From the NCBI GenBank assembly GCA_964187785.1, contig OZ076409.1:44642001-44706000 (forward strand): 64,000 bases of DNA, written 5' to 3'. This DNA comes from Amphiscolops sp. MND2022. Its lineage: Eukaryota. Under the pieces are notes generated by a model. The model had not been told where the DNA came from. It made no database searches and saw only the letters and a list, made by a program, of their open reading frames with translations. The position numbers and the translations under genes were made by a program. The number at the start of each line of letters is the position of its first letter. The first letter of the stretch is position 1. Shown here piece after piece: positions 10,740 through 64,000 of the stretch.

Positions 10740-11239
10740 ATGCAAAGAATTTTCTAATCTGATCCAAAATTGGAAATACATGTATTAAGATAGGAATATC
10801 AGACTTACACTTGGTGAACCTCCCACCAATATACATTTCCCAAATTTATCCAAAATTCAATTTCATCTTCGTTTTCGAGAGATTTGAGTGTATCTGCAAT
10901 GCAAAATTCATCAAAAAATATTTATTGGATCACTGATATTTCTCGAAAATTACCAATTTTAAATATTTTACTCCCAAAATCACATGTTTCGAAACATGTG
11001 ATTTTGGGAGTAAAATATTTAAAATAGGTAATTTTCGAGAAAATATCAGTGATCCAAAAAATTTTTGATAAATTTTGCCCTGCAGATACACTCAAATCTC
11101 TCGAAAACGAAGATGAAATTTGATTTTTGGTAAATTTGGGAAATGTATATTGGTGGGAGGTTCACCAAGTGTAAGTTTGAAATTCCTATCTTAATACATG
11201 TATTTCCAATTTCAGATCAGATTAGAAAACTCTTTGCAT
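10740..11239. repeat. ~500-bp spacerless inverted repeat (foldback-like)
   Basis: Two ~250-bp arms centred on cacatgtttc|gaaacatgtg (10990/10991), with scattered mismatches. Confidence 0.95.
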
Positions 11240-22332: not shown

Positions 22333-23062
22333 CCCGTACTGAGATCCCATCGCAGTTCATCGATGGCCATCGCAGTCCCATGGGGTCCATCGATGGCCAT
22401 CAATGGTCCATCGGTGGGCAGCGATGAGGTCTTTCTAACGATGATCCTACCGATGGGTCATCGATGGACCATCGATGACCCATCGATGGGAATCAAAATT
22501 TTCGGTCACAAAAATTCGTTTGACTTGGCCATGTTCAAAATTTCAACAAAACTCTCTCCATTTAGGTTTCTCAGTCTATTTAAGCTTTGTTTGGGATTTC
22601 GAGGATGCCCAAATATTTTATTCGGAAATGAAGTTAAACATAGTTATCCATATTATTTATCTTTGTGAAAAACCGGAATCTGTTGATTTCCCAAGGAAAA
22701 ACCGAATTTTTTGATACAAAAACGTATTTTAAGAGTCAAACTTCTGCATATTTCAGATCTTTTTTCTTCTTACAAGCAGATGGTTTTCTCAGCAATTGAA
22801 GCTCGATTCCGTCGCATTTTCATGCGAATAATTGCAATTTTGCCAGGTTTTTCATTTTTTTTCAAACAATTCAAGGGCAAGGCTCCGAAATAAGTGATTT
22901 TCAGGCTCGAAAAAGCTTACTCAGGCTCAAAAGGAAATGAGAGTAGGTTAAAATTAGATATAATTAACCCTAAAATGTTCCACAAGTGCCCCCATGCGCT
23001 GGGCGATAATTCAAATCTCATCGATGGCCCATCGATGGGATTGAATGGAGTCTCAGTACGGG
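22333..23062. mobile_element. MITE with CCCGTACTGAGA TIRs and 2-bp TSD (ta)
   Basis: ta-cccgtactgaga...tctcagtacggg-ta, with ccatcgatgg subterminal repeats. Confidence 0.85.
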
Positions 23063-26000: not shown

Positions 26001-29000
26001 TCGAGCAGTTTGTTGGAGTGCATAAATTACGCAAGTTGGTGAGTCTTTCGCTCCAAAAATATGCCTCTGACACTCGTAAACTTCTGGTTCTTCAAACTAG
26101 TTGTTTGTCCAAAGAAAACGAAGATATCGGCGATCTTGGGCTCGCACACCGACATGCATAAACATGCTTCCTATGTCGGCCATTAAAAGAACTGGTTTTT
26201 CGCGACATCTCAGAAGGATGCCAAGTAAGCTTCCCAACAAATCGGGTCCTCGAAGGAGTTGATCATTTAGGCAAACACCGTTCATTTTTGCTGCGGCGTT
26301 AGATATTCTTCTAACTTTTCCGGGCTTATTGGGGTTGACTAATCCATAATGAGGAAGTAACCATTTTGTTTCGTGATGTTCTTCAGGAGGAACTTTTCTG
26401 ATGTAGTCTTTCGTGATGTCACCTTCGATACCTGCTTCATAAGTAGTTTTTAGATCAGGTGTCTTGTTAAGGCATGCAACAAGAATGCAAGATGGCGTTC
26501 GGCGTAGAATCTGTTATTGTGAAGTTGGCTGTCGTCTCTCCACAACAAACCTGTTTCGTATCTACCATCAACTATGTTGCAAGTTTTTTGAAGTATTTCT
26601 TGAGCTCTTTTATCTTCTTGGTTGTCGTTGGCGTCAGTTTGGCATGTCCCGTATGAGTCTCTTTTCCACCAATTGAGAACTGCGTCGTACAAGTCTTCGT
26701 CTCTGCTTCGCACTGTTGACAGAAGAAACTTTCCATGGACGTTGCTATTGGATGGGGTCCGGCAATGGACCATCCCAGCTTGGTTTCCACGACTGTTGGT
26801 GCGTTCGGTGGACCTTCTTTGACACTCCTAGCGACTATTAGCGATTATAGATCGCATCCAATAAGAACTTCAACTTGAAGATCAGCGAGTGTTGTCAAGG
26901 TTATTTCATTTAGATGGGGGTATTTTCTGATGATGTCTGTTGGATTCTCTTCCAATTTTGGTAACTGAAAATCTTCAACTACCAGAATGTTTTGACATTT
27001 GAAACGTTCGGAATCGTTAGCATCGGAAATTTGAAATTGGACTGTCTTGGTAGAGTGGTTCTTTTGACTATTGAATCCTCTTATGATGACATCTCAAGTC
27101 TCCATGGGTTTTAACTCTAACATTTTCGCCAACTGGGGTGACATGAAGCTGCTAGTGCTCCCACTGTCCAATAGTGCATAGACAGTTTGCTTTTGTGATA
27201 GGCTGTGCACGGTAACCGGCACTACTTGAATAATGGCTGAACAGTTAACTTTTGTTGTGAAGACTTCGGCTTCATTGTTCGTTCTTGCCTGCTGGTTGTT
27301 GCAAAAGTTAACCGAGTTGGACTTAGGCGCTGTTTTCTCTCGGTGAAGAAGTGTGTTGTGTCGTTGGTTGCAATTGTTGAATCTGCATGTGGATTTTGAT
27401 ATACAATCTTTCAACAGGTGATTTTGGCTCAAGCAGTTCTAACAAAAACCTAGCGCTTTTACGTTGACATGTCTTTCTTCGGGAGACATCTTTTTGAATT
27501 TTTCGCATTTGAAAATCTGAGGCGAGCAGTCCTTCAAAGGACAAAAAAGTTCGGGGTGATTGTCTGCACATTGCAGTCGTTGTTTTGGAATTCTGAACAA
27601 AAAGTACCTGATGAGTGGCAGGGTGTTCAACGTTTTGTTGTTCAACTTGAAGTTGCTCGTATGCTTCGGCTATTGGTTGAATCCAGTCACTAAGTGTTGA
27701 CAGGTTTGGCTGTTCAATCTTTTCTTTAACTAAAAACTGTTGCCACTTCACTGCGTCCGGAAACGGCAATTTGTCTGTGGCGTGCTTCAAATTGGTTGTT
27801 GAGTATAAATCGGCAGTGAAATTATGAGCTTCGAAAACCCCTAATATCGTCTTGATGAAGAAGGAATCTTTGATGTACGTGTCAGGTCGATTGGGTATAG
27901 GGGGAAGGTGCTGTATCAATTGTTGGATCATTGTTCCAACAATCACTGTAGGTCTGCCAAAACGATGTTTCAGCTCGACAATAGCTTCTTCGTAATAATT
28001 GCCATCACATCCAAAAGATTGGATGACTTCATTGCACGGCCTTTGACTAAACCTTACAAGTATGCAATTTTTTTTACTGCTGCTCAGGGGGCTTGTCCAA
28101 TCATGAACTGAAAGCGACTGTTCCAGTCTGTCCACTTTGTCGGATCACCATCAAACGTATCCAAATTGATTTTGGGTAGAGCATTCCGGTACAAGTAGAA
28201 CTGTGAGTCATTCCGTTGTGAGACACCAATGTTACCAATACTTGGCACTGAAACTGTTGGTATTTCAGGTGCTGCTGATTGGTATGCTGAGGAAAAACTG
28301 GCTGCGTTGGCACTTGGTAGCGAAGCTGCATGGACTTCGACAACTGCTGGCCTAGGCTGAGAACCAGTTAGCTGTTGAGAATGATCACATCTATTGCTGA
28401 GTTCAGAATGTGTGGTGTCCGGATTGTCAAGAAATTAAACTGGATCCTGACAAGCAGTGGTAGTATTTGACTGAAACGTTCCCTGGGTTCCTCGATTTGT
28501 ACAGTGATCTGCATTCAATGTTGAATCTCCCGTGAACGTTACTTGGAATGGGTTTGGAACTCGCTTACGCGTCTCGCTCAATTCTAGTGCTTTAGCCCTC
28601 AATTCATCACTCTCAATACAAAATGTAGTCAATTTTTGCACTATATTGGCATGTTCCGATTCATCTGCATTTGCAATCATTGAGTATGTCAACTCTTCAA
28701 CTGTTGCTAGTTGTGTCACCACATCTTTCTGATGTTGCTCAACGAGACTGAAACTTTTCTGTTCAATACTTGCATGGAATGATTCTATTAACGCGTTGAG
28801 TCTACTTGTAGCAACTGATAGTTTAGCCCTCGTGACCATTTTAGGCACTGGGGTTTTTTGCTTTGAGCCCATTTTGCAGTTATTATTTGAATTGATCACT
28901 AGCTCTCATTTTGTACTGCTCGTATATGACGAACATCACGTCGGGGTCACCAATAATTATGCGGGAAATTGATTAAATAGATTTACGAGCTAAACAAACT

Positions 29001-29280
29001 TAAATAATCTTGAGTTACGGTTGGTATCATTGAAATTTTAAGTACTTTTAGACATAACGAACAACTTAAGAATTCCCAACGAGGGGTGTGCTAAGGAACG
29101 GGCTCACCGGGTGTATGGATCTTTTGAAGAGAGCAGAGTCGTGGAACTTCAATTGCGGTCATTAGTTTCGTCTCATCTCATTGAAAGTATTCACAAATAG
29201 TGAGCAATCAAACACGCCGATTCATTGAATAATCAAAAGTCATTGAAGTAAATATAGTCATTGATGAAGTTTCATTGACA
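23081..29280 (-). mobile_element. BEL/Pao LTR retrotransposon (BEL-1), both LTRs present, coding region decayed
   Basis: LTRs 23081-23402 and 28958-29280, TSD cttct, PPT 23403-23420. Fragments of gag with Zn knuckles, protease (LLDSGS), RT (LNDQLLRGPDL), Pao RNase H (FCDAS, TIPKLEL) and integrase (AVHLE, SDNGTNF). Many frameshifts and stops. Confidence 0.96.
28935..28952 (-). promoter_or_regulatory. 18-nt tRNA-Trp primer binding site of BEL-1
   Basis: TGGTGACCCCGACGTGAT, the known tRNA-Trp PBS as in avian leukosis viruses, 5 nt from the 5' LTR. Confidence 0.9.
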
Positions 29281-38989: not shown

Positions 38990-39189
38990 NNNNNNNNNNN
39001 NNNNNNNNNNNNNNNNNNNNNNNNNNNNNNNNNNNNNNNNNNNNNNNNNNNNNNNNNNNNNNNNNNNNNNNNNNNNNNNNNNNNNNNNNNNNNNNNNNNN
39101 NNNNNNNNNNNNNNNNNNNNNNNNNNNNNNNNNNNNNNNNNNNNNNNNNNNNNNNNNNNNNNNNNNNNNNNNNNNNNNNNNNNNNNNNN
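38990..39189. other. Assembly gap (200 N)
   Basis: Run of N. Confidence 1.
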
Positions 39190-43294: not shown

Positions 43295-44268
43295 GTAAGT
43301 CTTTTTAATCGATTTGGCGCTTTTAATTTACTGCGTATTGCTAGTTTTTTTTCTGATAAGCGAATATACTTTTTCATTGAAAACCGTTATTTTATTACAA
43401 GCGGTAAATTTCAGACAAGACGCTATGAGCTGCGAAAACGTCATTACATTCGGTTATTCGTGAAATTAAAAATTTTTCTAAAAACTACACAAAACCCATG
43501 AACCATCATATTGCTTTATAATCCTAACAAATAAATTGAAAAATGAAAGGGAGAGAGGAAAATTGGTGTCATATTGGCAATTTGTACAATTTTATGGTTG
43601 ATTTGAGTAAAGCAACTTGAATGAAGAGTCGAATTGAGAAAGAGTGAACAAACTAGAAAAAAGGTAGAAATAGAAGTCAATGAAAGTTTGAGTTTCAGAG
43701 CATGAAGTTTTGGAGTTTTTACTGTCAACATATACCGGCCCCCTTGAACGGTCCCAACAGCTTGGTGCAGGTCCTGCAAACATACAGGGTACAAAGTAGC
43801 ATTTGTATGACTTAGTGAAAAAAGGCATTTTTTTGAAAAAAAAAAGAATTTATACTAAGCTTTGGTTAAGTTGAATAGTTGACACGACGGGTATCCATAC
43901 CAAGTTCCAATTGAAGAGCAGTAGAGACAAAAAACAAGACCCAGTACCCATAATATAACACAAATACAAAATAAACAAAAACGAAACGGCGTAACGAAGA
44001 AGGACGGGACTGGGTGTAAACGTTTTTGGAAGAACCAAAAAACAAGCTCATTTAAATAATGAAAAATGTTTTACAGGGAATTTATACAATTACTTTGTTT
44101 GATGAAAATCTGTTAATGATGTTGTTGAATGGTTTGGTTGCGATAAGGAGGTAAATGAAAACTGTATGTAGGATTGTTATCTTTATCTTTAGTTTTTATC
44201 TTCGGGTCTTTGTTGTTAACTTTGATTCTGATCCAATGCTGCAAGTTTCTTTTTCGTTGATGACTTTG

Positions 44269-47200
44269 TTACTTGTTGATTTCTTGGTTCTTTCCATGGG
44301 ATACTTCTGCCGGAAGAAATAATGATAGCCGATGGACTGGCCGCACGTATGATCCTCTTCGGGTCCGGATCTCAACAACGCGGGCGATTTGGTCATTCCC
44401 ATCAAAAACTTTGATGACTTTAGCCATCGGCCACATCATTGGTGACGTATTGTCATCCTTCAAGAAAACGATGTCTCCAATTTGTAGGTTTTCTTGTTCC
44501 GCTGTCCACTTAGTTCGCTGTTGAAGAGTTGTGAGATATTCTGAGGACCATCGTTTCCAGAAAAAATTCATTGCTTGCTGGCGTTGTTGGAATCTTCTGA
44601 TGAGTGTGAGGTCTTCTTTGTCGGGTGGGTCAGAGTCTGGAACTGTTAGCAGTGGTCGTCCAATTAGGAAGTGTGCAGGTGTTAGTGTTTGAAAGTCGTT
44701 TGGGTAATTGGATGGTGAAGTTAATGGACGAGAATTCATAATGGCTTCGATTTGTGTCAGTAATGTCGTTAATTCTTCTAGAGGTAGAGTTGTCTTGCCT
44801 GTGGTTTTCAGAAAGTGTCGTTTGAAAGATTTAACGGCTGCTTCCCAAAGACCACCGAAATGGGGTGAACGTGGTGGGGTTGTGAGCCATTGGATCTTGT
44901 GATGGGCAGTGAAAGATTCAAGGGACTCGGTAATTTTTTGTTCTGCTAACATCCGTTGTATTTCGAGTTCAGCGTGTGTTCCTGTAAAGGTGCGAGAATT
45001 GTCACTGTAGATGGCACTTGGTAGTCCGCGGCGAGCGAAAAAACGTTGTAGGGTAGAAATGCAGGCTTCTTTGGTGAGTGAGTTGACAAGTTCTAGATGG
45101 ACTGCTTTCGTTGAGAAACAGATGAAAATTGCGACGTAGGTCTTTGCTGTTTTTGTTGTGATTGGGCCGCAATAGTCTAGCCCGATGTGGCTAAAAGGTG
45201 TTGAAGGAGAAATACGTTCTTGCGGTAAGTCTCGCATTTGAGGTTGACGTTGACGGCTGTTGAAGCGTGCGCATTGGGGACATTTTCGAATGATGGATTG
45301 GATAAGGCGAGTCACGTTCGGTATCCAAACTGTTTGTCGTAGAGTTGACAATGTTAATTGCCAACCTCCGTGAAAGCATTGTAGGTGTGTTTCGCGGATT
45401 AGAGCTGCGTTGATAATCGATCGTCGGGGTACAATAATTGGGAATTTGAAATCCATATGATACCTGTTGCTGTTGGCGAGACGTCCACCAACTCGAAGGA
45501 TTTGTTTCTCTTCGTCAAAAAAGGGAGCAAGGGCCCTAAGTGTGCTTTTGCGGGGCAACCTTTTGTTTTGTTTGAGGACTTCAAATTCTGTGAGGTGCTG
45601 TTTTTGAAATGTTCGGAAAATTAGTAGTCTTGCTACTCCAATTTCGACGGCGGAAAGGGTGGCTGTCCCTTGCATGTTGTGTAATGCGTGTCTTTTTCTT
45701 CTTTCTTCTGTCGGTTTCTTGTTTTGTTTCACATTTGAAACAAACCTGAGGACAAAACCGAAAACCTTGACGAGCTTCTTGAAACTCGAGAATTTGTTGG
45801 CTGCAACAAGTATCGCATTGTCGGCATCAGTGTAATCTCTGGAGGTGCGATTCGACTGGTGTGATTGTGATGAGTTCTCCGGATGTGGCTGTGGTTCTTC
45901 TTCTTCTTCTTCTTCTTGTTCTTCTTCTTCTTCTTCTTTTTCTTCGTCTTCTTCTTCTTGTTCTTCTTCTTCTTCTTGATCATCTGCTTGTTCTTTCGGT
46001 TCTTCTTCTTCTGGTGCTTTTGCTGTTGCTGCTGTTTCTTCTTTGTTGTGGTTCAGGATTGCTTGTTTACGGACTGGCAGGTAAACAAGGCTTGGTTGTT
46101 TCTGGGTTGTGTCGTCGTGAGTGTTAATACTCACAAGTTTTCTGTAGTCAAGCTGAACAGAGTTGTTCAGCCTTTTAGCTTCTTTTAGACTTTCTTCTGG
46201 CAAAGCAATGTCGATTTGAGGCCACGCTGAAGCTGGCATGCGCAGCCACTCAGGTCCTTGCCACCACAGATGGTGACTTTGAAGTTTTCGAGGCGACATT
46301 CCTCTGCTGGCACAGTCAGCTGGATTGGATTCAGTGGGAACATGGTTCCAGTTTTCTGCCGGGACTGACTTTTGAATCTTCGCTACGCGATTAGCAACGA
46401 AGGTTTTCCAACGACTCGGATGATTTTTTATCCAAGCCAGTGTGATTGTAGAATCAGTCCAAGCGAAAACTTTGAGGTTGGGAAATCGTTCGTCATCCAA
46501 GGCAATTCTGATCGATTGAAAAAGTTGCGCTCCCAAAAGAGCTGCACAGAGCTCTAATCGAGGAACACAAATTGTTTTGATTGGTGCCACTCGTGTTTTA
46601 GCTACGAGAAGCTGGCTTTGAAAGTGTCCTTGGCTGACGGGTTGGCGAATATAGACAACTGCGGCGTAAGCAGTTGTAGAGGCGTCACAAAAGCAATGGA
46701 GTTGAAGTGGGTTTTTGGAAGGTTCATTCTTATCGAGAATGAATCTCGGGGTGTCGATATCTTCGATTGACTTTAGATCGCGACTGAGATGTTTGCATTG
46801 TTGTAAGAGGTTGTGATTCAATGGTTGATCCCAAGACAAATTATCCAACCAAAGTGCTTGAATGAACGACTTCAATTGGATGACAATTGGTGAAAGGAGA
46901 CCCAACGGGTCAAAGATGCGGGTGACTTTGGAGAGTATTTGTCGTTTCGTTTGTGGGGCTTTATCGGCCGGTTCCACGTTGAATGTGAAGATGTCTTGCT
47001 TCGGTTTCCAGACGACACCAGGAGTTTGGATGAAATACTCTTCAGACTCGATGTGTCTGGTGTCGGCTGATTCTCGATATGTTTCGGGAAGGCGTTCAAC
47101 GAGTGAAAGATCACTCGATGACCACTTGCGTAGATGGACACCAGCGTTAGCTAGGTGTTTGATGAGGGTATCTTGCAGTAGTTCAGCTTCTTCTTTGGAG

Positions 47201-49915
47201 GCGGTTCCGGTTAATAGATCGTCGACGTACATGTCCGATTTGAGCGCTAGGGCGGCGATGGGGTGCTGTGTTGTTTCGGCTAACTCGAACAAGGGTCGTA
47301 TGGCATGGAAACCAGCTGATGTCACACCGTAAGTATTTCGAGTCATGCGGTAATATTCTAGAGTAGATGATGGGAAATCATGATGATGTTTCTTTCCAAA
47401 GTATTCTGTGGAAATCTTTGTCTTCTTTGTCGAGAAGTACCTGGCGGTACATTTTGGCAGTGTCGGCTGACAAAGCCACCTTGTGAAATCTGAACCTGAT
47501 CAAGATCTCGAAGAGATCCCTTTGGATCTTCGGACCAAGCATGAGGTTATCGTTTAATGAGACTCCGGAGGTTGTTTTCGCCGAGGCGTCAAAAACCACA
47601 CGAAGTTTGGTTGTCGTGCTGGATTCCTTGAGAACACAGTGGTGTGGCAGGTAGAATGACTTGCTGGTTGCGATTGGAATTTCAGACTCCGGGATTTTCT
47701 CCATGTGTCCCAGATCCAAAAATTCCTTGATGAAGGCTGCGTATCTAGTATAGAGGCTCTCGTTTTTGGAAAGTCGGTAGAGGAGTGTTTCGAGGCGACG
47801 TTTTGCTTGCTGAAAAGAGTCACCAAGGGGTATGGCGTCTTCTTTGAAAGGTAGTTTGACAATGAATAGTCCATCTTCATTCCGGGTTGTGGTTAGTTGA
47901 AAGTGTTGTTCGCATGCTTGTTCTTCTTTAGTGAAATGATGGCTTTGAGGAAGATCTTCAATCTCCCAAAACTTCTTGAGGGTTTCTTCTTCGGGAATCG
48001 AATTCAATGAGCTAAGGCAGGTTGTGAGGGTTTGAATTGACACTGAAGGCGAACCTCCAATGACAACCCACCCAAACAACGAATCACGGTATGTTACATT
48101 GTTGTTTTCCTTGATCCGTGCATCCAACATGATGGTTTCATAAAGTTCAGCTCCAATGAGCATGTTGATTCCAGAAGGTGTGTTGAATGTCGGATCGGCG
48201 AGCTTGAGGTTTGGAAGATGTTTGAAAGACGAAGTGGAAACCTTGCATGAGGGCAAGATGTTGGTGAGCTTTGACATTACAAAGGCTCTCACTGGAATAG
48301 CTGCTGCTCTTTTCGGGGTGATAAGGAAGTCTGTGGTTCCGCGATGTTGTAGCTCATCCTTGGCGCCCAGACCAAAGATGCGCACTTGTTGTTTTTTCAC
48401 TGGAAGACCTAGTCGTGTGACTAGATTCTCAGTGATGAGGTTACTTTGGGAACCTGAATCGAGAAGTGCTCGGCAAAGTGTGGTTTCACCGTTTACTAAG
48501 ATGGGTATCATGGCTGTTTGCAAGAAGACTGTTCCGGTTGTTTGAGGAGAAAGCGAAGTAGCTGTGAACTGTTCTGGTGGCGGTGATTCCGTATTAGTTG
48601 TTTTTTCTGATTCATTGTGCCGATTGTTATCCGCAACTGTACTGTTGACAGAACGTGTTTGTCGTGGTGATTGTAGATGAAGTAGAGTGTTGTGCTTCAG
48701 GTTGCAATTTTTACAGGTCGATCCTCTGCATTCTTGTTGTCGGTGACCTGCGCGCAAGCAGTTGAAGCAAAGTTTCTTCATTTTCACGAATTCAGCTCGA
48801 TTTGGGACTGAAAGTTGCTTGAATTTTGGGCAGAGATGTAATTTGTGAGTGCCATTGCAACACTCGCAATTGATTTCGTTAGTCGTCGTATTGGTATTGT
48901 AATTCCGTTGTGAGGAGTGCGACTGTTGGTTGTTGTTTTGACGAGTTGTAAAGCGATGCTGTGATGAAATAGTTGGCGCTGAGAGTGTTGATGCTTCTAG
49001 AGCCAAGCATCGGGTTTCCAGGAATTTTTTCAAGTCGTTGTAAGTTTGAGGATCCGTTCCAGGCGTTGAGAGCTCCCAAAACTTCCTCGTATCAGCAGGG
49101 AGTTTTTCGGTGACGAGGTATACAAGAAAGATATCTTGCTGGTCGACTGGTTGACCCATGTTCTCCAGGGCCAATCGATGTTCTTCCACGGTTTCTACAA
49201 GTTGACGAAGATCTTTAGCGGTTTCGTTGGTAAGCTGTTTCTGTGTAGATATGGCATGTACATGGGCGCGCAAGATCATGCGGTTGTTTTGGTAGCGGTC
49301 TCGCAACATCTTCATGGCGACAGAGTAATTAGCGTCAGTGATTGTTACCGATGCTAGAAGCTTTGCTGCATCGCCTTTCAAAGATGCTTTGAGATACTGT
49401 AGCTTCTGGCTGTTCTGCAGGGTGCCGTTGTTGTGAACTGCTCCAGTGAACAAGTCGAAGAATAAGGTCCACGAGAGATAATCTCCTGAAAAGGTTGGCA
49501 GATCCAATTTTGGCAACTTCGCTGTAGTTAATGGGGGTGTGCTTCTTGTAATTGTTGATGATGTTGATGTTGTTCCACGTACCGCTGGTGTGATGCTTTT
49601 GATGAATCGGTCTATCTGGTCTAGCTGTTGAACTAGTTTATCGTCAAACTCCTCAGATTGCAGGATGTCGGTTTCCAAGACTTCTTCGTTGTCGAATTTT
49701 GATTGAATTTGTAGATTGAGGTCGTTTAGGAAGGTTTGTTTTCTTGAGAGATTTTTGTGTAGTTGTTCGAGCCGAATAACTGCATCGGCGATGCTTACAG
49801 AGCGCGTTGGCAGAATTAGGGATTCTGCTTCTGTCCAGTATTTAGTGGCAACTGACTTGTGGGAAGCACGGCTTTTCTTTTGCATTTCAATCTCTGTCAT
49901 TTTGGTTTTGATCAC
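44269..49915 (-). pseudogene. BEL-2 gag-pol polyprotein split by a single frameshift in RT
   Basis: KLPKLDLPTFSGD, three Cys-His knuckles, LLDSGS, KLRVVFDAS, YVDD, FCDAS, VPRLEL, AVHLE, SDN, GGLWE. ORFs 47378-49915 and 44269-47346 are out of frame. Confidence 0.95.
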
Positions 49916-50092
49916 GTAAATTTTTTGTTGCTGTTTCGTAGCTCTTTTCCTTACTTGGCTTAACTTTACTTGACGTTACTTTGAACTTTGAGCTGGTCTT
50001 CACTTTAAATACTTTGTGAGAATCTTGATATCTTTGAAGAGTGGTGATTATTGCTTTAAATTACTTTGAATTTGCTGTTCCAAATTTCGAAG

Positions 50093-50270
50093 ACTGACGA
50101 AGACTGAATCGAATTGCCTTTAATTGGTCTTTACAAGCTTTGAATCTTTGAATACTGATGAAGACTGCTTTGAGTCACTTTGAATTTCTCTTTACAAACT
50201 TTGAATCTTTGAAAATTGACGAAGATTGCTTTGATTTACTTTGAGGTTCCCTTTAAAAACTTTGGATGCT
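50093..50270. repeat. ~60-bp tandem repeat x3 in the BEL-2 5' leader
   Basis: actgacgaagactg...tttacaa.ctttgaatctttgaa repeated, with further ctttga motifs nearby. Confidence 0.75.
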
Positions 50271-50925
50271 TCGATTTTTCAAGCTTTGGATGCTTGGGAA
50301 TTTCTTGAACTTTGAAATATTTCGTATGCAGTGGAACGTATCCAGATTGACGTTATAGCTTTGAAACTTTGAATGGGGAAAAAATTTTTCCGAAAGCTTG
50401 TTTTTTTGTTTTTTGAAAGGTTGGGGGGTTTAAATAAGCTTGTTCTGAAAGTAATTGGCAAGCTCATTTTGTCAGTAAAGCATCGATTTTTTGTTGAATG
50501 AAAGTTGTTTTCAATGGCCACCAAAAAATGGTTTGAGTAAAGCAACTTGAATGAAGAGTCGAATTGAGAAAGAGTGAACAAACTAGAAAAACGGTAGAAA
50601 TAGAAGTCAATGAAAGTTTGAGTTTCAGAGCATGAAGTTTTGGAGTTTTTACTGTCAACAATGGTCACTTCAACCGGATTGAAAAACAAGTGAACGAGAA
50701 GACACTATAAAGTGTCAAAAAAATTGTCTCAATTGTACTTAGATAAGTATTTTTCGGCACGCATCCATGAGGATGTTAGAGGGTGTCCGTTCACTAAAAA
50801 AAGCGTTGACGCAGAAATCGAATAGTGCTGTGCACTAACCAGAATCATCTCTGATTGGTTGTAATTCAAAACAAGACTAATTTCAGAAAAAGTGTGCTGA
50901 TTAATTGCGTGATTTACTGGCAACT

Positions 50926-52846
50926 TTCAACTCCCTCCCCCCCCACTACAAAACTAGTTAGTTAGAACATAATCACAGTAAAAAAAAGTGAAACACTTTT
51001 TGTTCAAACGCAAAACTATTCCAATGGAAGTTAACTTCCTGTTTTGGAAGATTTCTAATCGGGCCAGTTCGAAACTATTTTTGAATTTTTCTTTTGAAAA
51101 AATTGATGATGTGGGTTGGGTAAGTAAAATGGTCCGAATTTTATATGGATATGAATACTTAGAGAGATAAGGTATATTTTACTGTGGAAGTAGAAATTTC
51201 ACTGGAAGATACTAGAAAATGATATCTAATTCGGTTGATGCACATATAGTTCAAATTTCTGCATGCAACGGTGTCTGCTCGGAAAACTAGAATCTTGTTA
51301 GAGGTTGTTGGTTGCATCAAAACAACAATGACTTTAGTTGAAGCTTTTATATATGAAAAAAGCTCGACTATTACAGTCACTCGGTTTTTTTATTCTATTG
51401 TTCAAGACAGACTTGAGTGCGACAAATTTTTTGTTCAGTTTGTTCAAGTAAACGAATACCTGGGTAATGCATCCAAGTTATTTCAATGGGTCCCCCTTTC
51501 ATTTTTACTTTTTAACGTAACCTACAAAACCGGACGAGACTAGATGGTCCCCTTCCGATGTGTTCGACACTGTGAGACTTTCAAAATTCTGATTTTTGCC
51601 TGGAAACTGTGTCTTTTTTCGAGTTTTGGAAAATGTCTTCGAAGGACCCCCCTTCAATTTTTTTGATATTTTGCTATATATGTTAAAAATCCCAACGAGT
51701 CCCTTGTTTGAAATTTTTCGGCGCTATGAGACTGTTCAAAATTCTCATTTTTGTCTGTTGTTAGGTTTTGTCAAAATATATCCAATATTGTATTTCAATA
51801 CTTTCCGAATTTTTGACGTAATATCAGAAGTGAAGCGCCAATTCCGAATTCCTGACGTTTATTTAGTTCAACATGAAACTATTTTTAGAAACAACAACGG
51901 CTGAAAATAGCACCATGACGATATATCTAATCTAACTTTAGACATCAGAAAGACTAGTCGGCAACGAATTGTTTATGCAGCCGCGCGGACTGCATGAACG
52001 TAATATTAATTATAGCATTTTTCAAACTCCCCACTACAAACACAGTTAGTTCGAACATAATCACAGTAAAAACAAGTGAGACACTTTTTGTTCAAACGCA
52101 AAACTATTCCAATGGAAGTTAACTTCCTGTTTTGGAAGATTTCTAATCGGGCCAGTTCGAAACAATTTTTGAATTTTTCCTTTGTAAAAAGTAATGGTGT
52201 GGGGTGGGTAAGTAAAATGGTCGGAATTTTTATATGGATATGAATACTCAGAGAGATTATGTCTATTTTTACTGGGGAAGTAGAAATTTCACTGGAAGAT
52301 ACTAGAAATCTCTACTAGACAAAAATCTCCGAAGTAGAAATTTCACTGGAAGATACTAGAAATTGATATCTATTTTGGTTGATGCACATATAGTTCAAAT
52401 TTCTGCATGCAACGCTTTCTGCTCGGAAAACTAGAACCTTGTTAGAGGTTGTTAGTTGCGTCAATTCAACAATGATTTTAGTTGAAGCTTTTATATAATA
52501 AAAAAGCTCGACTATTACAGTCACTCGGTTTTTTTTCTTTTGTTCAAGACAGACTCGAGTGCGACAAATTTTTTGTTCAGTTTGTTCAAGTTAACGAATA
52601 CCTGGAAAATGCATCTAAGTTATTTCAATGGGCCCCCTTTTCATTTTTACTTTTTAAAGTAACCTACCAAACCGGACGAGACTAGAGGGTCCCCTTCCGA
52701 TGCGTTCGACACTGTGAGACTTTCAAAATTCTCATTTTTGTCTGATGTTAGGTTTTGTCAATATATATCCAATAATTTATTCAATACTATCCGAATTTTT
52801 GATTTAATATTCGAAGTGAAGCGCTATATCCGAATTCCTGACGTTT
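50926..52846. repeat. Direct duplication of ~0.85-0.9 kb (50926-51860 and 52021-52846)
   Basis: ccactacaaa...gaacataatcacagtaaaa...ccgaattcctgacgttt in both copies, with indels. Confidence 0.92.
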
Positions 52847-53083
52847 TATCCGAACTATATTGCGTTTACCAAGGAGGAGGCGGAGGTTCGGAAACAAGTG
52901 CTCTCATTTGTTCCAGCACGCTGTATTCGAACTTCTGAAGCGTTTTCCGAGACCGAAAGGCACTTTTTTGGTGTTTCGGAACTTTTTTGTGTTTTTCATA
53001 ACGTTCTGAAAATATTTCAAAAACTTTTTTTTAGCTTTTTGAGGCCTAGTGATAGCGCCGACTTGAGACGTTCCCGCCTTGTT
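52478..53083 (-). mobile_element. HINE/DINE-like (Helentron-type) non-autonomous element
   Basis: Ends gcgccgacttgagacgttcccgccttgtt, the reverse complement of the AACAAG terminus at 54203. Hairpin tagttgaagctttt..aaaagctcgacta at the other end. Confidence 0.5.
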
Positions 53084-53514
53084 TGTTCTTAACAATATTG
53101 GTGGCTACGCCTCACCTAGAAAAACGAATGTTTTGTGCCGCATCCGTTCTTTCTTATTTGTGCTGTTCTCATTAAGATTTCCTCGAACTCAAAAAAAAGC
53201 AAAAGTGAGTGAAAATAACAGAAACTGCATCATGATAAATGTACCTTTTTCGTTCTACAAATTAAAAGCTATCACAAACTGAGTTCGGGTGAGTTTCAAA
53301 AAATTTTTGTCGGTAGGTACCCGAAAAACCAAGATTTCAGACATATCGTAGCCTGGGTTTGAAGCCTGGAGTCGGGGTCGGACCTGGGGAGGTTTTTCAT
53401 TCGATGATCTTGTCACATGGTTTCCTCTCTTGGACTTGGGTCCAGATCTTACCCTAGAATAAAAATTGGTATCAACCCTGGTAGTATCGAAGTTAAGTTC
53501 ATTCATTGTTTTAG

Positions 53515-54202: not shown

Positions 54203-54579
54203 AACAAGCCGGGAACGGCCCAAGTCGGCGCCATATCTAAGGCTCAAAAAGACTCGAAAACCACTTTTTCTACAACTGGAGACAACAAAAGCTCTCAAAA
54301 AACTAAAAATTGAGAAAAAAAATTTCCGATTTTTTTGAAATTTTTTTTTGAAGTTTCCGGTAAGTCGCACAGTGCCGAAAAATGTAAAAGGGGGTCGCTT
54401 TTTATCTCATGTTAGACGCTTTGGATGCGTTGAAAATGAAGTACTAAGTACATATGGTAAAAATTGGTAAATGTGCATTAATTGCATTAATGCACAAAAA
54501 GTGGACGTTACGCGTTGAACTGACGAAAAAAAAACTAGCCACTGTAAGAGTCGGGATTTTCTTCGAAAACGCCGACTAA
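54203..54579 (+). mobile_element. HINE/DINE-like non-autonomous element
   Basis: Starts AACAAGCCGGGAACGGCCCAAGTCG and ends in hairpin agtcgg...ccgact. An inverted partial copy ends at ~55015. Confidence 0.5.
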
Positions 54580-55321
54580 CAACGGACGTCCAAAACATTC
54601 TCGAAACGCCAGAACTTCCTCCAAAACAAAAACATCGACGTCCAGAAACTCGAAAACATACTAAGGATCCCCCTTTTGGTGTTTTTCACTCAGATTTTTA
54701 TCGGCACAATGCGACTTTTTTTTGAGAATTTTTGGATTGCACCAAAGGGTCTCCTCTTCATTTGTTTCGATATTTTGCAACCCAATGATGTCAAAAAATC
54801 CCAAAGGGCTCCCCTTTTAATTTTTTGGCTCTGTGACACTGTTCAAAAATCTCATTTCAATATTTTCTCGGAAATTTTTTAAAATCTCCCAAGGGTCCCT
54901 TCAATTTTTTTTCATATTTTGCAACCAACTGGATTTTCACAAAACCCAAAGGGTCCCCCCTTTTACAATTTTGAGCCTTGGATATAGCGCCGACTTTGGC
55001 CGTTCCCTGCTTGTTTTTTCTTTCGTTTTATGATTATTTGACTAATTTTCAAAAATTGATCGATCACAACGACTATTTTTTCTTAAATGTCTGAATGTGA
55101 AATTCAAGTAACATGATGTCCTTGAAACGACATAATTAATATAGATTAATACAGATTGATTAAGCAAATTGAAAGACAAAGTGTGAGTAATGCGGGTTTG
55201 TATAGAGATGACAATCACACAAAAGTATCCCCTATGTGATCCAATACAAAGATCGGTCTGCATCTGAAAGTGTAAAGAAAACAGGCATGTTTTTATCACT
55301 GATACGAAAGTCGGGTTAGAG

Positions 55322-55620
55322 ACATGATTTGCCCTGAGGAGTTAAGTGCGCTACAAAACAAAGAAAAATTTGGAAAATACGACACTACGATATGATTACA
55401 CTTGGATATGAGAAATTAAAAGACCAATAATTTTTATCACATTTTCTCAAAACAACACAATCGAATCGCCCTAGAAGAATTTAGAATTCTATCAAATGTT
55501 GAATAAGGTGTGGTTTTCACTGTATCTCTCAAGCAAAATTGTATGCCAAATTCACAGCCGGGTTTTGTTCAGACTGTTTTTTTGTTTGAAAACGTTTGTC
55601 ACATACTGTAACGACCAGCG
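55322..55620. repeat. Left copy of the ~295-bp flank duplication around Gypsy-B
   Basis: acatgatttgccctgagg...catactgtaacgac.agcg recurs at 61187-61479. Confidence 0.95.
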
Positions 55621-58600
55621 TTATAGCTGAGGGTTTCTCGATGAAAACAGATTTGAGCAAGCAGAACTTGTAGACAATGTATTCAATGTAGACCATATGG
55701 TGAATGGTCGTTGAGATTATTTTCATGATACAGTTTTATTTATCAACAACTTGCTAATTTACTTTTAGATTAACTGCTCTTTTTGTTGGAGTTAGTTTGA
55801 GGTCGCCCTCTCACATCCCTCCATTTAATGTTAATGTACATCACCATAACATACGTAACAAGATCATAACTATAAGTAAATATTAATAATAAATATACTC
55901 AAGCAGTAACTGATCGCGTAACAAATTAACATAAATGGTATTTAGGAATACCGGTAGTAATGTTTGAGTAACTGGTACTGTAATTTTTTGGTTCAAAGTT
56001 TGGTTTCTTGTATGTTTTCGCGTCTGTTACTTTTTTGTTTCTTCGTGTTGTTCTTCGGTTCTTGGGCCATCTATTTTGGTCATAATAACATTGTGGCCAA
56101 AGAATTCCGTTCTCTGGCGATTGCGTTCTCCACGTCTGCGTTCTTGTATTGTGTCTCTCCGTGGTGGCAGGTTTGTTCGAGTTGTGTTTTTGCTAGAGTC
56201 GTCCGGACTTGTTTCTTCTTGGCTCTCTTGTTTTATGTTTACTTGTTCTTCTTGTCCCATCATTTCTTCTTCCTCGTCGGATTCGGTTAAATCGATCACT
56301 GGGGTGCTTTCTTGGATTGTTGGCAGGCTGTTAGCTTTCTTCTTCTTTTGTTGTCTTCGTACTTTATCTTTCAGTTGTTTTATGGCGGATCTCTTTTGTT
56401 TTATTTCCAACTTTGTTGTTGTTGGGGTTTTTGGCTCCTTGACTTGTTTTGTTGGCCGTTCTGTGTCGCACTCATCAGTATTGTTATTGCTTGTGGTATT
56501 GTCCAATGATAGTGACGAATTGCTGTGATTGGTCAATTCGTCTTGACTTGCCAACTCGCGCGTATTTGCCACGTCGACGTGTTCTGCCATTTGTTTGCGT
56601 AGTTGGTTTAGTCGTCTATCTGCCTCCTGTGAGCTGCATGGCTGTTCATCTGCAGTTTCGTATTGTTGCTGCTCCGTGACGTTGTTTGTCTTGGCAATAT
56701 CTCTTTTGGATATTATTGTTTCCTGTGTTTTTCCGGCAGGAAGGAAAGTGATGGTATGTTGGGACTGGTCGAGAATTGTACCCTTTCGCTTCTTGTAAGC
56801 GTTTTCCAGTTTGGTCCCTCGGACCCGCTCCCTGACAAAAATTATAGAATTTTGTCCCGATTCGACATCAGACGACGACAGTTTGAGTTCTTCTGATGAT
56901 TCTGAAATAGGTAATTCACGACTGGTTACTAATTTCTTGATAGTGTTTGGTTCTATTCCAACATATTTTTCATACGGAGATTTGCCATTTCTTGTTGGGT
57001 ACACACGTAGTGCAAACAGAATCTCTGATAAGCCCGAATGATCTCTTCGCAGTACGATTTGTTTGTTGGTACGTAGTCGTTCATTTATAGTGCGGATCAG
57101 ACGTTCTATTTTTCCGTTTCCTCGATGATCACCGATGGGGCATTCAATGTGTTGAATGAAACGATTGGCGTAAAATGTATTGAATCGTTTACTTCGGAAA
57201 ATAATCGCTGGGTCAGTCCTAATGCTTTTTGGGATGCCGTGCCTGGCTATGTAATTTTTTTCAAAACTCAAAACCTTTCTCTGTCGTAGGCTTTCTTAAA
57301 AATTTAGCCTCCGGCCACCCCGACAAATGGTCTATAGAAACTAGGAGATATTGTTTTGCTGCAGGTGCGTTTTTAAAGGCCGGCAAAATCTATTGCGATT
57401 TCCTGATTAAGTTCACTTACCGTGGGTAATTTACCAACTTGTTTTTGGGTCAATAATGATTTGATATTCTTACCTGCATTTTGGCACTGTGGGCTTGTTT
57501 TTGCTAAATTGACGGCCTCCCGATGCAGTCGCGGCCACCAGACGTTGGATACCGTCGCTAGCATTGTATCCCTCCCGGGATGTCCGTAATGTAGAGAGCG
57601 AATAATGCTTTGACGTAACGCTTTTGGTATAACTAAACGTTCATCCATGTAAATAAAATCATTTGGATCTAGGCTCAAACAACGGAATTTTTCCCTCCAA
57701 GGTGTGGGAAGACGATTTATTTTTGTACTGTCTGGCTTTTTAAGGAGGGCCACAATTTTTTTGCATAAATTCGTCTGTTCCATATTGTGAGGCGAAATTG
57801 AAATTGCCCAGTGTTTGCAGAACTTAGATCTGATTAACACTATAGCAGATCGGTACTTTTAGTGGTTGTTGGTTTGCTGCGTGACGGAATTCCTCGGTCA
57901 TTGTATCGCTTGCTTGTTCAGATTCACTGCTTTGCGATGTTTTAATGATTGTGGCAATCTCGTTAAGTGTTTGTTTATTTACATTCGCGACGTCGCTCGC
58001 TTTTGTCAGTTCGCTCTTACTTGGTGAATTATCGCTGTCTTGCCATTGGCTGTCATTCACTGCGTACGGTGCTATTGGCTGTTCTCTCGCGTTTTGTGCT
58101 TGGGACGTATCTGAAACAAATTTATTTTTGGTTATTTCATTTACAGTAAACCAGTTGTTTCACATTTCTTCTGCTTTAATTTTGTGTATGTTACTAGCGT
58201 TTTCAGAAGGGTGGCGTGATAAATAATCTGCGATACCCATGATTCGGCCTGGTGCATGTACTACAGTAAATTGAAATGGTAAAAGGCGATCTACCCACCT
58301 AGTTAATCTTGACGAAAAGGTCTTATTAGCTCGATTATCGCGTAAAATGGTTGTCACTGCCTTGCGGTCTGTAACTACTTCGAATTCGGTGCCGTGTACA
58401 AAATTTTCAAAATTTTGCAATAAACCACACTACTGCTAGAAGTTCTAATTCGTTCATCGAATACTTCTTTTCAAATTCAGTGAGAAATCGCAATGCGAAA
58501 TGAGTGGTTACCCATTCTGCACCTGGTTTTTGTTGTAATACTGCTCCAAGACCTTCTTTACTAGGGTCGCAAATAATTCTTGTTGGAGCGTCTCGTTGAA

Positions 58601-61185
58601 AATGTTTTATCGCAGTGATTTCTTTGATAGCTTCCTTAATCTTACTGCATGCGTTTTCATGCTCTGTTCGCCATTGCCATTCTGCATCTTTTCGTAATAA
58701 TGGGCGTAATAGTGCACACAAGTGAGCTAAACTGGGTATAAAGCGATTCATCTGATTAATTACACCCAAGAAAGATCGTAGATCTTTCAAGTTTTTCGGG
58801 CGTAGTCGATCTGTTATAGCTTGTATCTTTTCCTCTATTGGTCGAATTCCAGCTGCTGATACTTTGTATCCCTACCATTCAGTTTCTTTCTGTGCCAATT
58901 TGCATTTTTTCAAAATTTAATCTCACGCCAGCCTTGTCCAACACTCGGATAATTTCTTCCACCTATTGCATATGGGCTTCGTGGGTCCCTTTGGTGACTA
59001 TTAAGATGTCATGCAAAAATGTAAAAGTATTCTTCGTTGCGTGTAGTATTTTATCCATGATATTCTGAAACTCTGGAGGTATTATTGTTAGACCATAATA
59101 TCCAGTGTTGAAAGCATATGTGCCGGTGGATTCGCCTCCCACAATTTGAAAGTTGCAGTGTCTTGCTGTATTGGGATGTAGTGGGGTTTGGCCACAGGCA
59201 TACAGCATGTCAAAAGAAGAAAACCACACTTCCCCGTCCTTTTCTTCATTTACGACTTCGGCCATGTTCTGCATTAAACTTTCCAAATTTGGCCTTTGGT
59301 GTTTACTTTTTAATATGGCATTATTCAGTGACCTGGCATCCAGTGCAATTTTTACACTTCGGTCCTTTTTGACTGTTATCACTACAGGTTGAATAAACAT
59401 TTCAACTGAGATTTTGTCGACTCTTTTGATATGTCCTGCTGCCAGCAAATTTCTAACTTTTGCGTCCACTGCTTTTTGAAGTTGAAGTGGTACTCGTCTA
59501 CCCTTATGTTGAGTAATCTTCGCTCCTTCTTTAAATTCGATCTTTATACTGTGACCAGCAATTTTTCCTTTACGTGAAAAAATCTTGGGGAACTTTTGTT
59601 GAATACGTTTTAATTCTGGTGACAATTCGACTTTACTTTCTATATTATTTACAATGAAAGGGTACTCACTTTCTTTGGATGCCTTCGCTACTCTGAAGTT
59701 CAACTGTGTTAACCAGTCTCGGCCAATCAAAGATCGTTTTCCATCTCTGACAATGATGAGTTTGGCCTTCTTGATGTTTCTTCTCTCTACTTGTCCGTCA
59801 ACTGTAATGTATCCAAGTAAGTTAAGACGTTTTCCATTGTAGTCCACGTATTGCTCATTTTTAGGAAGTGGTCTGGTAAACAGTACATCTGATTTGGTTA
59901 TTTGGCGAATATCCTCTTTCGTGAATATAGTAATAGGCGACCCCGAGTCAATCATCGTCTGAAATGGTTGTTTGTTTATTTTTCCCTTTAACATAAAAGG
60001 TGGAGTTCCTGTGTTTCCAGCGAGATGCAAAACTACTTTGTCGTTTTCACCTGAGCTGTGTTCTGATTGGTCCGTGGCTTGGCCAATTAAATTAACTCGT
60101 TGAAATTTGCCACGTTGAGAGGATTTGCCAGATCCTCTGAAACTGCCACTTTTTGGTCTTTTACACATACGCATAAAATGGCCAACCACGCCACTGTTGC
60201 GACATTTTTCTCACTTCGCTTTACATACTGATAAGTGGTTTTGATTGAATTCCCAACCACAACGGGTACATGGATTCTTGTTTTTATTTTCGATTGCACA
60301 CACTGGTTCTTTCTTTGTAATGTTTCCGCTTGTGAAGCTTTGTTGTTGTATTATGCCCTCCTCAAAAGCAATAGCAAAGCGTAACGCCTCTTGTGGTTGC
60401 TCTTTCGGGTCAGTACATAAACGCATTTGCACCGTTTTATTGTGCATGTTCTGGATAAAAGTATCCATTGTAAGTCCTTCTGTTTGTTCGAATTCACAGC
60501 GTGCTGCTAACCCAGTCAGATTGTTCCAAAATTGGCGTAATGATTCATTTTGCAATTGTTTACGAGAAAGGAATTTAAATCGGTCCAGTGTACGATTTCT
60601 AGGCCGTTGAAAAGTATCCTTGCAATTGGCTTTTTTTCGCGCAGGGATGCTGTTGCAACTGTCATATGAGGATATTTGTCAGTTAGGTTCTTGCGTCCTG
60701 CCGCTCCCAATGAAAGAAATAAAAAAATACTCACAATCTTGCGTTCTGCGGCCTGTTCGTTGGTGTTGTTTAGTAATGCCGCTTGTCTCGGCTGAGCTTC
60801 TGTAGGTGTACGTAACAGTTCGTGGACTGAAAATGAATGTTTGGCATTTACGGCCACTATGAAGATGTCCCACCATTTTTCCCATTCTATTCTAGGTGGG
60901 GTGCTGTGCTGATCCCAATATGGTGGCAGTCCCGCCAATGCTGACGGACCGCTGGTTGCTGTTCCTCCGCTGGAGTCAATAATGTCTCTCAGCGCCATGT
61001 TATAGCTGAGGGTTTCTCGATGAAAACAGATTTGAGCAAGCAGAACTGTAATTCAATGTAGACCAAATGGTGAATGGTCGTTGAGATTATTTTCATGATA
61101 CAGTTTTATTTATCAACAACTTGCTAATTTACTTTTAGATTAACTGCTCTTTTTGTTGGAGTTAGTTCGAGGTCGCCCTCTCACA
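55620..61185 (-). mobile_element. Gypsy/Ty3 LTR retrotransposon (Gypsy-B), both LTRs present, coding region decayed
   Basis: LTRs 55620-55815 and 60998-61185, PBS TGGCGCTGAGAG (tRNA-Ser-like), PPT AATGGAGGGA. Fragments of gag, protease (MIDSGS), RT (FLHDIL), RNase H (ADYLSR) and integrase (LHYGHPG, GKIER). Confidence 0.95.
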
Positions 61186-61186
61186 C

Positions 61187-61480
61187 ACATGATTTGCCCT
61201 GAGGAGTTAAGTGCGCTACAAAACAAAAATTTGGAAAATACGACACTACGATATGATTACACTTGGATATGAGAAATTAAAAGACCTTTAATTTTCATCA
61301 CATTTTCTCAAAACAACACAATCGAATCGCCCTAGAAGAATTTAGAATTCTATCAAATGTTGAATAAGGTCTGGTTTTCACTGTATCTCAAGCAAAATTG
61401 TATGCCAAATTCACAGCCGGGTTTTGTTCAGACTGTTTTTTTGTTTGAAAAAGTTTGTCACATACTGTAACGACAAGCGT
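61187..61480. repeat. Right copy of the ~295-bp flank duplication
   Basis: Matches 55322-55621 with about six substitutions and two small indels by eye. Confidence 0.95.
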
Positions 61481-62198
61481 CGGACGCTTGCATGCCAACG
61501 AAGGGGAGGGACTAGAACGGAGACTTCGTGACCGGGACTGACTGTCTCTAAGTACCAGCCCATTTTTTCGCAGTGCACCGGTCCCGGGGAGGAGGCACAG
61601 TATTGTACGACTCTCACCAGCCTTAGTCTGATCTATAATTGCTATAGATAACCTTATCTTGCTCGCTGTCGTCCTCAGGACTACCGTTTAAACACCTTCT
61701 AAAAACTGGGTACAGGAACACCAACCTGTAAATTTCAGGATATACAGGTTTCCATATGAATCACCAATAAAAGCAGCCCTCGAACATACAAATCTAAACA
61801 TTATAACAACAATGTAGGACACTGGCAACAATCCACCCAGCCCGGGAGCTGGGTGTTTCCGTGTGCACTAATCGGCAGGGTTCACACGGCCGGCATTATG
61901 GGGTTATAGCACTGCATTACAAAATGCAAAAAGATTCCCATTTGCATAGGCGCTAGCGCATCAATTTCTTCTTTTTTTTTTTAGATTGATTCTTTTTCTG
62001 ATAACTCTCTTCTAGGCATTCTCTCGTTTACGCGGCGGTTTTTTGTTGCTTGTTCACATTTCTGGCAGGTGCTTAGTAAAACATGCTCAGTGGTAAACCA
62101 AAATTGGCTTGAACGAAATTTTCAAAGGATAGATTTTTCATTTTTGATAATCCTGTCAGCTGTTAAAGAAAATTGGGTGGCAACAGGGGTACGTTACA
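61466..62198 (+). mobile_element. Probable solo LTR
   Basis: TGTAACG...CGTTACA inverted ends, tac on both flanks, internal AATAAA at 61766. An alternative end lies at 61921. Confidence 0.45.
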
Positions 62199-62363
62199 TA
62201 CTATTCTGTGACTTGAAATCTCTCTTTGAAACTTGGAGCCTTATAAAATTTCTGACACCAGACACGCGTCTTTGTTTCTTTAGATAATGATCACCATATT
62301 TGATACACTTTTGCTTTGCTTACTGTTGTCCACTTTCAATTCTTAAAAATCTTTTTTTTTCAG

Positions 62364-62445
62364 CTCCAACCAAAGTTCAGAGTGCAATTTTTTCGGATGT
62401 CTTCAATGAGAATGGTGACCCCGATTTGACAGGCAGCAAAATAAG
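62364..62445 (+). CDS. Host FN3 gene exon K (start of next domain, phase 1-2)
   Basis: (t)9cag|CT CCA ACC...ATA AG|gtaac, PTKVQSAIFSDVFNENGDPDLTGSKI. Phase matches exon J. Confidence 0.75.
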
Positions 62446-64000
62446 GTAACTATTTTTGGCAAAATCCAAAGCGATGAAGACGTGAAAAGTTCAAGCGTAG
62501 TGGCAATACCAAATGTTTAGTTCTTTTGGACAAAGCAAAAAGTTCGAATATCTCAAATATACCCTCTTAAATGCTCAAAAACTATTTCCAATGTCAGAGT
62601 TTCAACAGATTTAAATTACCACGTTTCTGCTTTTCTCTGATAAAATCTTTTCATTTCTATGGTTAGCACCAATGGTTAATTCGACAGAGAAAACCAATAC
62701 TTATGGCAAAATACGTTTCGAGCAAAAAAATTTAGTTACTGCAAATGAGAACTTTTTGTCAATGGAGACATGTTTTTGTTTATGAATAATTAAAACATAC
62801 ATATACAAAATGTGTAATTCTTTGTCCAAGAACAGTTTCAAGTACTTTTATAGAAACCAAACATTGTTAAGAATATTACTTCAGAGACAAAATCTAACAA
62901 GAAGTAGCACTGCTATATTTTTCTTATAATGTTACATCAGAAAATTTCCAAGTGGGGCCCTTCTGGGTAAGGAAAAGAATTTATTTTGTCTTAAAATATT
63001 TAAAAACCCGATCTTGTAACATTTCTTCGAAAAATGTTGGTTAAAAAAGTCCAACAGTTCCAAAATTATCCAGAGGTGTGACCCTTCAAGCTCGAAAATG
63101 TTCCTCTATGTTCAAGCCTCTATGTTCCTATGCTCGCAGAACGCTTTGTCCCTACTAAAAATTAGAGAGAGCTTCAGATGACAAAAATTCGGAAAAAGTT
63201 GCGTAGTGCAGAAAAAGGGACCCTTTGGTCCTTCCTCTAACAATGCGGGTAAAAAAATTGGTTTAGTGAAGGACTCGAACCCACGTACCGATAGAAAGCT
63301 ATTGTACGATATTTGCAATCAAGTGATCAAGCATTAGTCGATTCAAAACTGCAGTTCAAAGGATTTGCTGAAGTTCATTAGGTCTGACTGCTAAGCAATG
63401 AATAATGTTGTTTGTTACTGAAAGCGCAAAGAAAGCGAAATTGACTTAATATCCGAAAAGGTTCTAACAGCGGAAGCGACGACTCAAATTTGCGCTCATC
63501 TGATTGATCGGAACTTTCAGGCATTTATTATCGAAACATTACATCAAAATCAGTCACAAGTAGTATTACAGAATTGTGGAAATGTTGGCGTCCGACTTTC
63601 CAAAAATATTGCTGTCAAGTACTGAGAGTTTCTTCTGAAATCAGTACATTGAAATATTCTCTTGTTCTCTTGTTTTGGTACGCTTTGGTACCAAATAGCA
63701 AAAAGCCCAAACATCAACAGCGAAAACTCTCAAGGTGCCTTTTTTCTCATGACATCCAATTGACAAAAATCCCAGGCAAAAAGTTCATTAAATTTTGATC
63801 ATAAGGACAACGATAATCTTTGGTTTTGAATTTAAATGAAAATTCAAATTTTTGAACATGGTATTTTAAGGAAATTTGAAATTTTTCGAAATTCAACACG
63901 TCTGAAAAACGACTTGTCACAAGAAAAATCTCACTCGATCGTTTTTGTAGCCATTACAATGCCTTCAATTTTCATGTTAAACTTTTTTCTAAAAATGCGT

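Follow-up and report, generated by a model that had tools for sequence, protein, structure and literature searches.

The window analysed here is a 64,000-nucleotide stretch of contig OZ076409.1 (assembly GCA_964187785.1) from Amphiscolops sp. MND2022. At positions 55620–61185 it carries a decayed Ty3/gypsy element on the minus strand, which is enclosed by two direct copies of host DNA, here called X. The left copy of X (55322–55621, plus strand) is 300 nt long and its last two bases, GT, are common to X and the adjoining long terminal repeat (LTR), while the right copy (61187–61480, plus strand) is 294 nt long. The two copies are 96% identical (E = 5e-137, BLAST within the window), and an alignment of 294 columns shows 6 substitutions and 2 indels between them. 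Repeat searches and alignments within the window bear out the original prediction that the parts follow each other as X-LTR-internal-LTR-X, with X outside the element. This order rejects X as a part of the LTR, and a tandem-repeat check rejected it as a tandem-repeat unit. Self-comparison of the window returns no third copy of X.

The 5′ LTR (60998–61185, minus strand) is 188 nt long, begins with TG, ends with CA and has an AATAAA motif at position 76. The 3′ LTR (55620–55815, minus strand) is direct with respect to it and has matching ends, except that the terminal base at its U5 end is absent. The LTR copies differ by 2 substitutions over 187 columns, along with a 1-nt gap and an 8-nt gap that lie close together. 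The 3′ LTR is adjoined by a polypurine tract (PPT) at 55816–55826 (minus strand), a label taken from established LTR anatomy, and a putative primer-binding site (PBS) with a TGG start directly follows the 5′ LTR (60980–60997, minus strand). The first ATG of gag (60996–60998) shares one base with the end of the 5′ LTR and two with the start of the PBS, and no spacer separates the LTR from the PBS. The decayed gag-pol region (gag, protease, reverse transcriptase, RNase H and integrase) occupies 56027–60998 on the minus strand. Its Pfam matches come in the order gag-asp_proteas and RVT_1, both below cut-off, then RT_RNaseH_2, RT_RNaseH and Integrase_H2C2, all above cut-off. The Bel/Pao signature domains Peptidase_A17, DUF1759 and DUF5641 are absent from all seven pieces of the element searched with Pfam and are present in its neighbors. 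Judged from its LTRs, its PBS and PPT, and its domain order, the element is a Ty3/gypsy LTR retrotransposon. It may resemble the Mag clade.

The coding region has been compared with relatives of 1200–1596 aa, using 7 of the 195 relative proteins fetched, and shows at least six frame changes and several in-frame stops. The pooled substitution and indel rates of X and the LTRs predict about 41 substitutions and about 15 indels in this region, and the decay is of the expected order. Among the 120 protein relatives listed out of 292, the best are 59–71% identical over most of the element's length, and one is 91% identical over 35% of it. A close sister is known as a protein (P0078), which is 85–97% identical in gag-protease. 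The element's own pol fragment forms a cluster of one, and the subfamily looks low-copy. Relatives in metagenome contigs have also been sought. Of 213 candidate stretches, 33 were confirmed at 22–46% identity on contigs of 1.0–5.5 kb, too short and too distant for a survey of target site duplications (TSDs). In viral contigs none of 4 and none of 57 candidate stretches were confirmed, and an exact 24-nt LTR pattern had no match in the JGI metagenome contigs. Queries with X, the LTR and the older insert described below gave no match at E < 0.01 in 33 metagenome loci, and Rfam returned none at gathering score over positions 54500–64000.

Several details of the repeat copies were observed along the way. 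An adjacent AA/TT difference between the copies of X (61274–61294 and 55409–55439) creates a perfect 8-bp inverted repeat in the right copy. A single template switch at a quasi-palindrome, instead of two substitutions, is the origin that this suggests. In the left LTR (55668–55681), an extra 9 nt duplicates the bases just downstream and resembles a local slippage insertion. Transversions outnumber transitions in repeat pairs of the window, at 5 of 6 substitutions in X and 9 of 12 in the LTR pair at 23 kb, while each of the other two LTR pairs has one transversion in two substitutions.

The two joints between the element and X

At the left joint (55616–55621, plus strand), X passes into the LTR through the two common bases GT at 55620–55621, and the terminal T of the LTR is absent. 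The loss of this base and the GT microhomology had both been claimed beforehand, and both are seen. Because of the minus-strand orientation of the element, the damage lies at the downstream (U5) end of its 3′ LTR, and the element-sense 3′ end, one base short, runs directly into the complement of X. A microhomology of at least 2 nt is expected at 30% of 63691 window positions when 0–2 nt of trimming is allowed. Since it is this common by chance, the microhomology fits a one-ended model of integration without proving it.

Nor is the right joint clean. The LTR terminus is complete there, as had been stated, but an unmentioned extra base, C at 61186 (plus strand), stands between it and X, and the left flank has a G at the matching place (55321). 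A substitution in one copy or the other, a slip in a CA run or an insertion made during repair could each account for the C. A scar of a PPT tail at this joint has been considered and rejected, as the match is 3 nt long and is present at 54% of positions.

No repeat of 4–7 nt, with up to one mismatch allowed, is found at the element for any of the 4 × 3 boundary choices. As a control, the two neighboring LTR pairs examined, both Bel/Pao by Pfam, each have exact 5-bp TSDs. The marks of canonical concerted integration, a 4–6-bp TSD and two exact ends, are therefore not seen at this element, and the claim that a duplication of about 295 bp stands in place of a normal TSD agrees with the lengths of X and with the lack of a short repeat. 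The same result bears on the possibility that a tandem X-X arose first and the element then inserted at its junction. Such a history would produce the same order of parts, and another diverged tandem duplication exists in the window (50941–52846), but the insertion would have to fall exactly at the junction and should have left a 4–6-bp TSD, which makes this sequence of events extremely improbable.

An assembly artefact, by a haplotype switch or a chimeric read, is very improbable as the source of the arrangement. The window does contain a scaffold gap (38990–39189), but it is the sole one and lies 16 kb from the joint, and 8 scattered differences separate the copies of X. Moreover, a joint at an LTR terminus with a 2-nt overlap would not be the product of an overlap assembler.

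An older insert at the end of X

The right copy of X ends inside a 733-bp insert (61466–62198, plus strand) that begins with TG, ends with CA and has a 7-bp terminal inverted repeat. The insert is flanked by the 3-bp repeat TAC, or by 5 bp (ATACT) if one base per end is counted in. Of the 1495 TGT starts in the window, just 2 are paired, at a distance of 100–2000 nt, with an end that gives both a 7-bp inverted repeat and a 3-bp flanking repeat. The insert carries TATAA at 61634 and AATAAA at 61766. Two other candidate ends, near 61693 and 61786, were discarded on visual inspection. The insert has no similarity to the Gypsy LTR, and no second copy of it is found in the window, by a search with its first 234 nt and by self-comparison of the whole window, or in the 33 metagenome loci. 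It is probably a solo LTR of another family. Its first 15 bp are copied as the end of the left X (55607–55621, plus strand), and the duplication must thus be younger than the insert. This agrees with the relative age proposed for the two and slightly extends the ~14 bp that had been reported as copied.

X also ends 2 nt from the center of a perfect inverted repeat with 8-bp arms (61474–61490). Depending on thresholds, 0.3–0.8% of the window lies within 2–3 nt of the center of such a repeat. The 91-nt region around the hairpin folds no better than shuffled sequences (z = −0.75), so the hairpin is a local feature only. A second hint concerns positions 55616–55620 of the left joint, which equal five PBS-side bases of the element (60990–60994) and include the C at 55616 that differs from the right copy of X. 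A match to the PBS of at least 5 nt is found at 3.1% of 63640 window positions. The A that matches this C in the right copy is probably ancestral, because it completes the hairpin. Both hints are post hoc, having been found after looking.

Routes to the duplication

Both boundaries of the duplication lie within 1–2 nt of the LTR termini. This points to the participation of free cDNA ends, is hard to explain otherwise, and is a stronger argument than the microhomology. The best single explanation, which we infer from this one locus and hold to be fairly probable, is that a Ty3/gypsy cDNA underwent one-ended (half-site) integration and that host repair finished the process. This reading is favored because a 4–7-nt TSD is absent while both neighboring LTR pairs have exact 5-bp TSDs, because the divergences of X and of the LTRs are compatible, and because the strand polarity fits a priming model published for aberrant proviruses (PMC5041404). 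The weights that we attach to this explanation and to its rivals are judgements and were not computed.

In the one-ended scheme, integrase would have joined the U3 end of the cDNA, on the right in the window (61185), to host DNA at the start of X, while the U5 end on the left was not transferred. The 3′ end of U5 would then have lost one base and joined through the GT microhomology to host DNA about 295 bp further on, at the tip of the hairpin inside the older solo insert. Host synthesis, primed from the 3′ end of the cDNA, would have copied X and produced X-element-X. Alternatively, this synthesis could have proceeded by strand displacement from the nick made by integrase in the first step and ended in hairpin cleavage and end joining, a route with the same product and indistinguishable from the first. 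Afterwards all copies would have decayed, each gathering about 0.8% substitutions, and the additional base at 61186 would be one of these later changes or the result of slippage in the CA run. Which end integrase made is not certain, as both joints deviate by 1–2 nt. The mirror version, with the left end made by integrase, holds about a tenth of the probability of the best reading.

Some observations speak against one-ended integration. The right joint, which integrase is supposed to have made, has an unexplained base that needs a later change, at about 2% per site between the copies of X. In addition, a 2-nt microhomology is as common as noted above, and the comparison of ages has little power. 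That comparison puts the divergence of X nominally above that of the LTRs (2.0% vs 1.1%), and the difference is not significant (Fisher p = 0.49 for 6/294 vs 2/187 substitutions and 0.75 for events; 8 substitutions in all). The two ages are thus compatible in a low-power test, and the expectation that the copies of X differ about as much as the LTRs has been upheld by a weak test on few changes.

The nominal excess of divergence in X is what allelic copies might show, and it bears on a pseudo-TSD, in which the element inserted normally and acquired the second X through a later event. One way would be unequal recombination between two family members inserted close to each other on different alleles, and another would be a template switch between the empty and the filled allele during repair. 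Either route would give X-element-X without a short TSD, and pseudo-TSDs have been proposed for the long TSDs of HERV-K (PMC5488345). However, the excess is not significant, two insertions in the same orientation within 300 bp are unlikely for an apparently low-copy subfamily, and a template switch would have no reason to fall within 1 nt of an LTR terminus. A pseudo-TSD also predicts two clean LTR ends, and both deviate. We regard it as unlikely.

The imperfect joints themselves are accounted for if the host joined both ends. In this case a break whose nicks were offset by about 295 bp would have taken up a full-length cDNA, one end joining through microhomology and the other acquiring a short templated insertion (the CA run). 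No later mutation is then needed at either joint, and integrase-independent insertion exists, in Tf1 at about 5% of the wild-type level (review PMC12786077; PMC11042837). On the other hand, just one LTR base is missing in total, and we hold this capture to be improbable.

That both ends are within 1–2 nt of complete could also mean that integrase transferred both, in an uncoupled manner, to opposite strands about 295 bp apart. Gap filling would yield a true long TSD, and later slips would have altered both joints. Both indels of X and both joints do lie in short repeats prone to slips, and TSD medians of 23–26 bp have been described for three Drosophila LTR families in somatic tissue, from few insertions (PMC8090852). 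Yet two independent micro-mutations would be needed, one per joint at about 1% per site per copy, together with a chance match of the common base or bases, and such uncoupled transfer is decidedly unlikely. That the element's family produces long duplications as a rule is highly improbable, and none of the observations points that way.

Within the one-ended scheme, the resemblance to the PBS offers a possible reason why the U5 end failed. If that end still bore a single-stranded copy of the PBS, it would have been unusable by integrase, and its tail could have paired with a similar sequence in the older insert's hairpin, leaving its own base, the C at 55616, in the left copy of X. This is doubtful, and it needs an extra loss of 5 nt at the joint. 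The insertion would then have followed a hybrid route, with integrase at one end and PBS annealing like that of Tf1 at the other, which we rate as just as doubtful. If true, the junction would record why the second end failed, in a natural germ-line insertion of a non-retroviral element.

Comparison with known systems and neighboring features

Work by Mamedov et al. from 2004 is said to concern HERV-K (HML-2) insertions with long target site duplications. Natural long TSDs of HERV-K (HML-2) have been described at 61, 96, 111, 206, 250 and 450 bp, and among 451 sites with a putative TSD, 8 TSDs exceeded 10 bp (Kahyo et al. 2017, PMC5488345). Two of the long cases have a sequenced empty allele, and one case has two extra nucleotides between the LTR and the duplication. 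The authors left the mechanism open, warned of pseudo-TSDs from later rearrangement, and noted that recombination between two such copies can recreate a single-copy allele. The likeness lies in natural germ-line LTR insertions with long direct duplications that are rare among normal sites. The HERV-K cases differ in being retroviral and mostly solo LTRs, whereas the present element is a full-length non-retroviral Ty3/gypsy copy with both joints readable. The half-site integration with host repair put forward in the original prediction stands as the best single explanation, with a fitting polarity, but these precedents of 61–450 bp make it less unusual than had been implied.

Aberrant proviruses of HIV-1 and ASLV have one normal end and another that is often truncated and usually shows a short homology; most commonly, hundreds to thousands of base pairs of host DNA are duplicated (Varadarajan et al. 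2016, PMC5041404). In the model outlined there, a host polymerase uses the free 3′ end as a primer on nearby DNA, and recombination beyond the first joint leads to a duplication. The geometry at the present locus matches, with a trimmed end joined at a short homology and a host duplication of hundreds of base pairs. In the accounts given in that source, the proviruses were induced in culture by inhibitors, integrase mutants or mutated ends, whereas this insertion is natural and old and its "normal" end carries one extra base. The element probably works like an aberrant one-ended provirus and is a candidate member of that class.

Other systems are further removed. Tf1 cDNA inserts independently of integrase through a single-stranded PBS at the U5 end (Li et al. 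2022, PMC11042837). The affected end is likewise the downstream (U5/PBS) end, and the bases adjacent to it here resemble the PBS. The Tf1 events reported in that source, however, match the first PBS bases directly after the LTR, and those that were cloned had inserted in tandem at copies already present. At this locus a match of 5 nt (3% by chance) lies five bases further along, and nothing is missing from the far end. Long target duplications are also known for the non-LTR elements R9 (126 bp) and Dualen (median 900 bp; PMC9977147), which share the long direct duplication around a retroelement. According to that source, they use nicking endonucleases and target-primed reverse transcription, whereas the element described here has LTRs, a PBS, a PPT and an integrase. 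In plants, the LTR-element TSDs counted in the cited work are of 4–6 bp, and the preference for palindromes is slight (PMC6911290). A literature search that covered few subscription journals found no report of a duplication of at least 100 bp around a non-retroviral LTR element.

Long duplications are known from the endogenous retroviruses of humans and from retroviruses that were mutated or treated with drugs, and this locus would add a non-retroviral Gypsy element to them. Both of its joints can be read, and it links the unexplained natural long TSDs to an experimentally defined one-ended pathway. LTR finders that require a 4–6-bp TSD would miss or mis-bound such copies, and their frequency is therefore probably unmeasured. 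Each such copy also leaves a 300-bp repeat through which recombination can cleanly remove the element. The present element is a single dead copy and leaves the general view unchanged.

The window holds several other repeats. A Bel/Pao element at 23081–29280 has an exact 5-bp TSD (CTTCT) and LTRs that run from TG to TA in the element sense, not from TG to CA. A second one, at 43599–50660, has 132-bp LTRs that are 98% identical and a 5-bp TSD (ATGGT). With its long open frames of 865 and 1076 aa, this element looks young. It is adjoined by the diverged tandem duplication at 50941–52846 mentioned above, which has a period of ~1.1 kb and is 88–93% identical. At 3487–9724, a further retroelement has a 1175-aa frame for reverse transcriptase, RNase H and integrase and an upstream frame with a weak match to DUF1759; no LTR pair was found for it in the window. 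A 500-bp near-perfect palindrome (93%) at 10740–11239 has a perfect core of 35 bp, and clusters of short related GC-rich palindromes at 15367–16039 and 22451–23037 possibly represent a small repeat family. Just left of X, two 47-bp inverted repeats (54203–54249 and 54969–55015) lie about 720 bp apart and probably form a MITE-like element, of which a third, partial repeat copy is found at 53029–53090.
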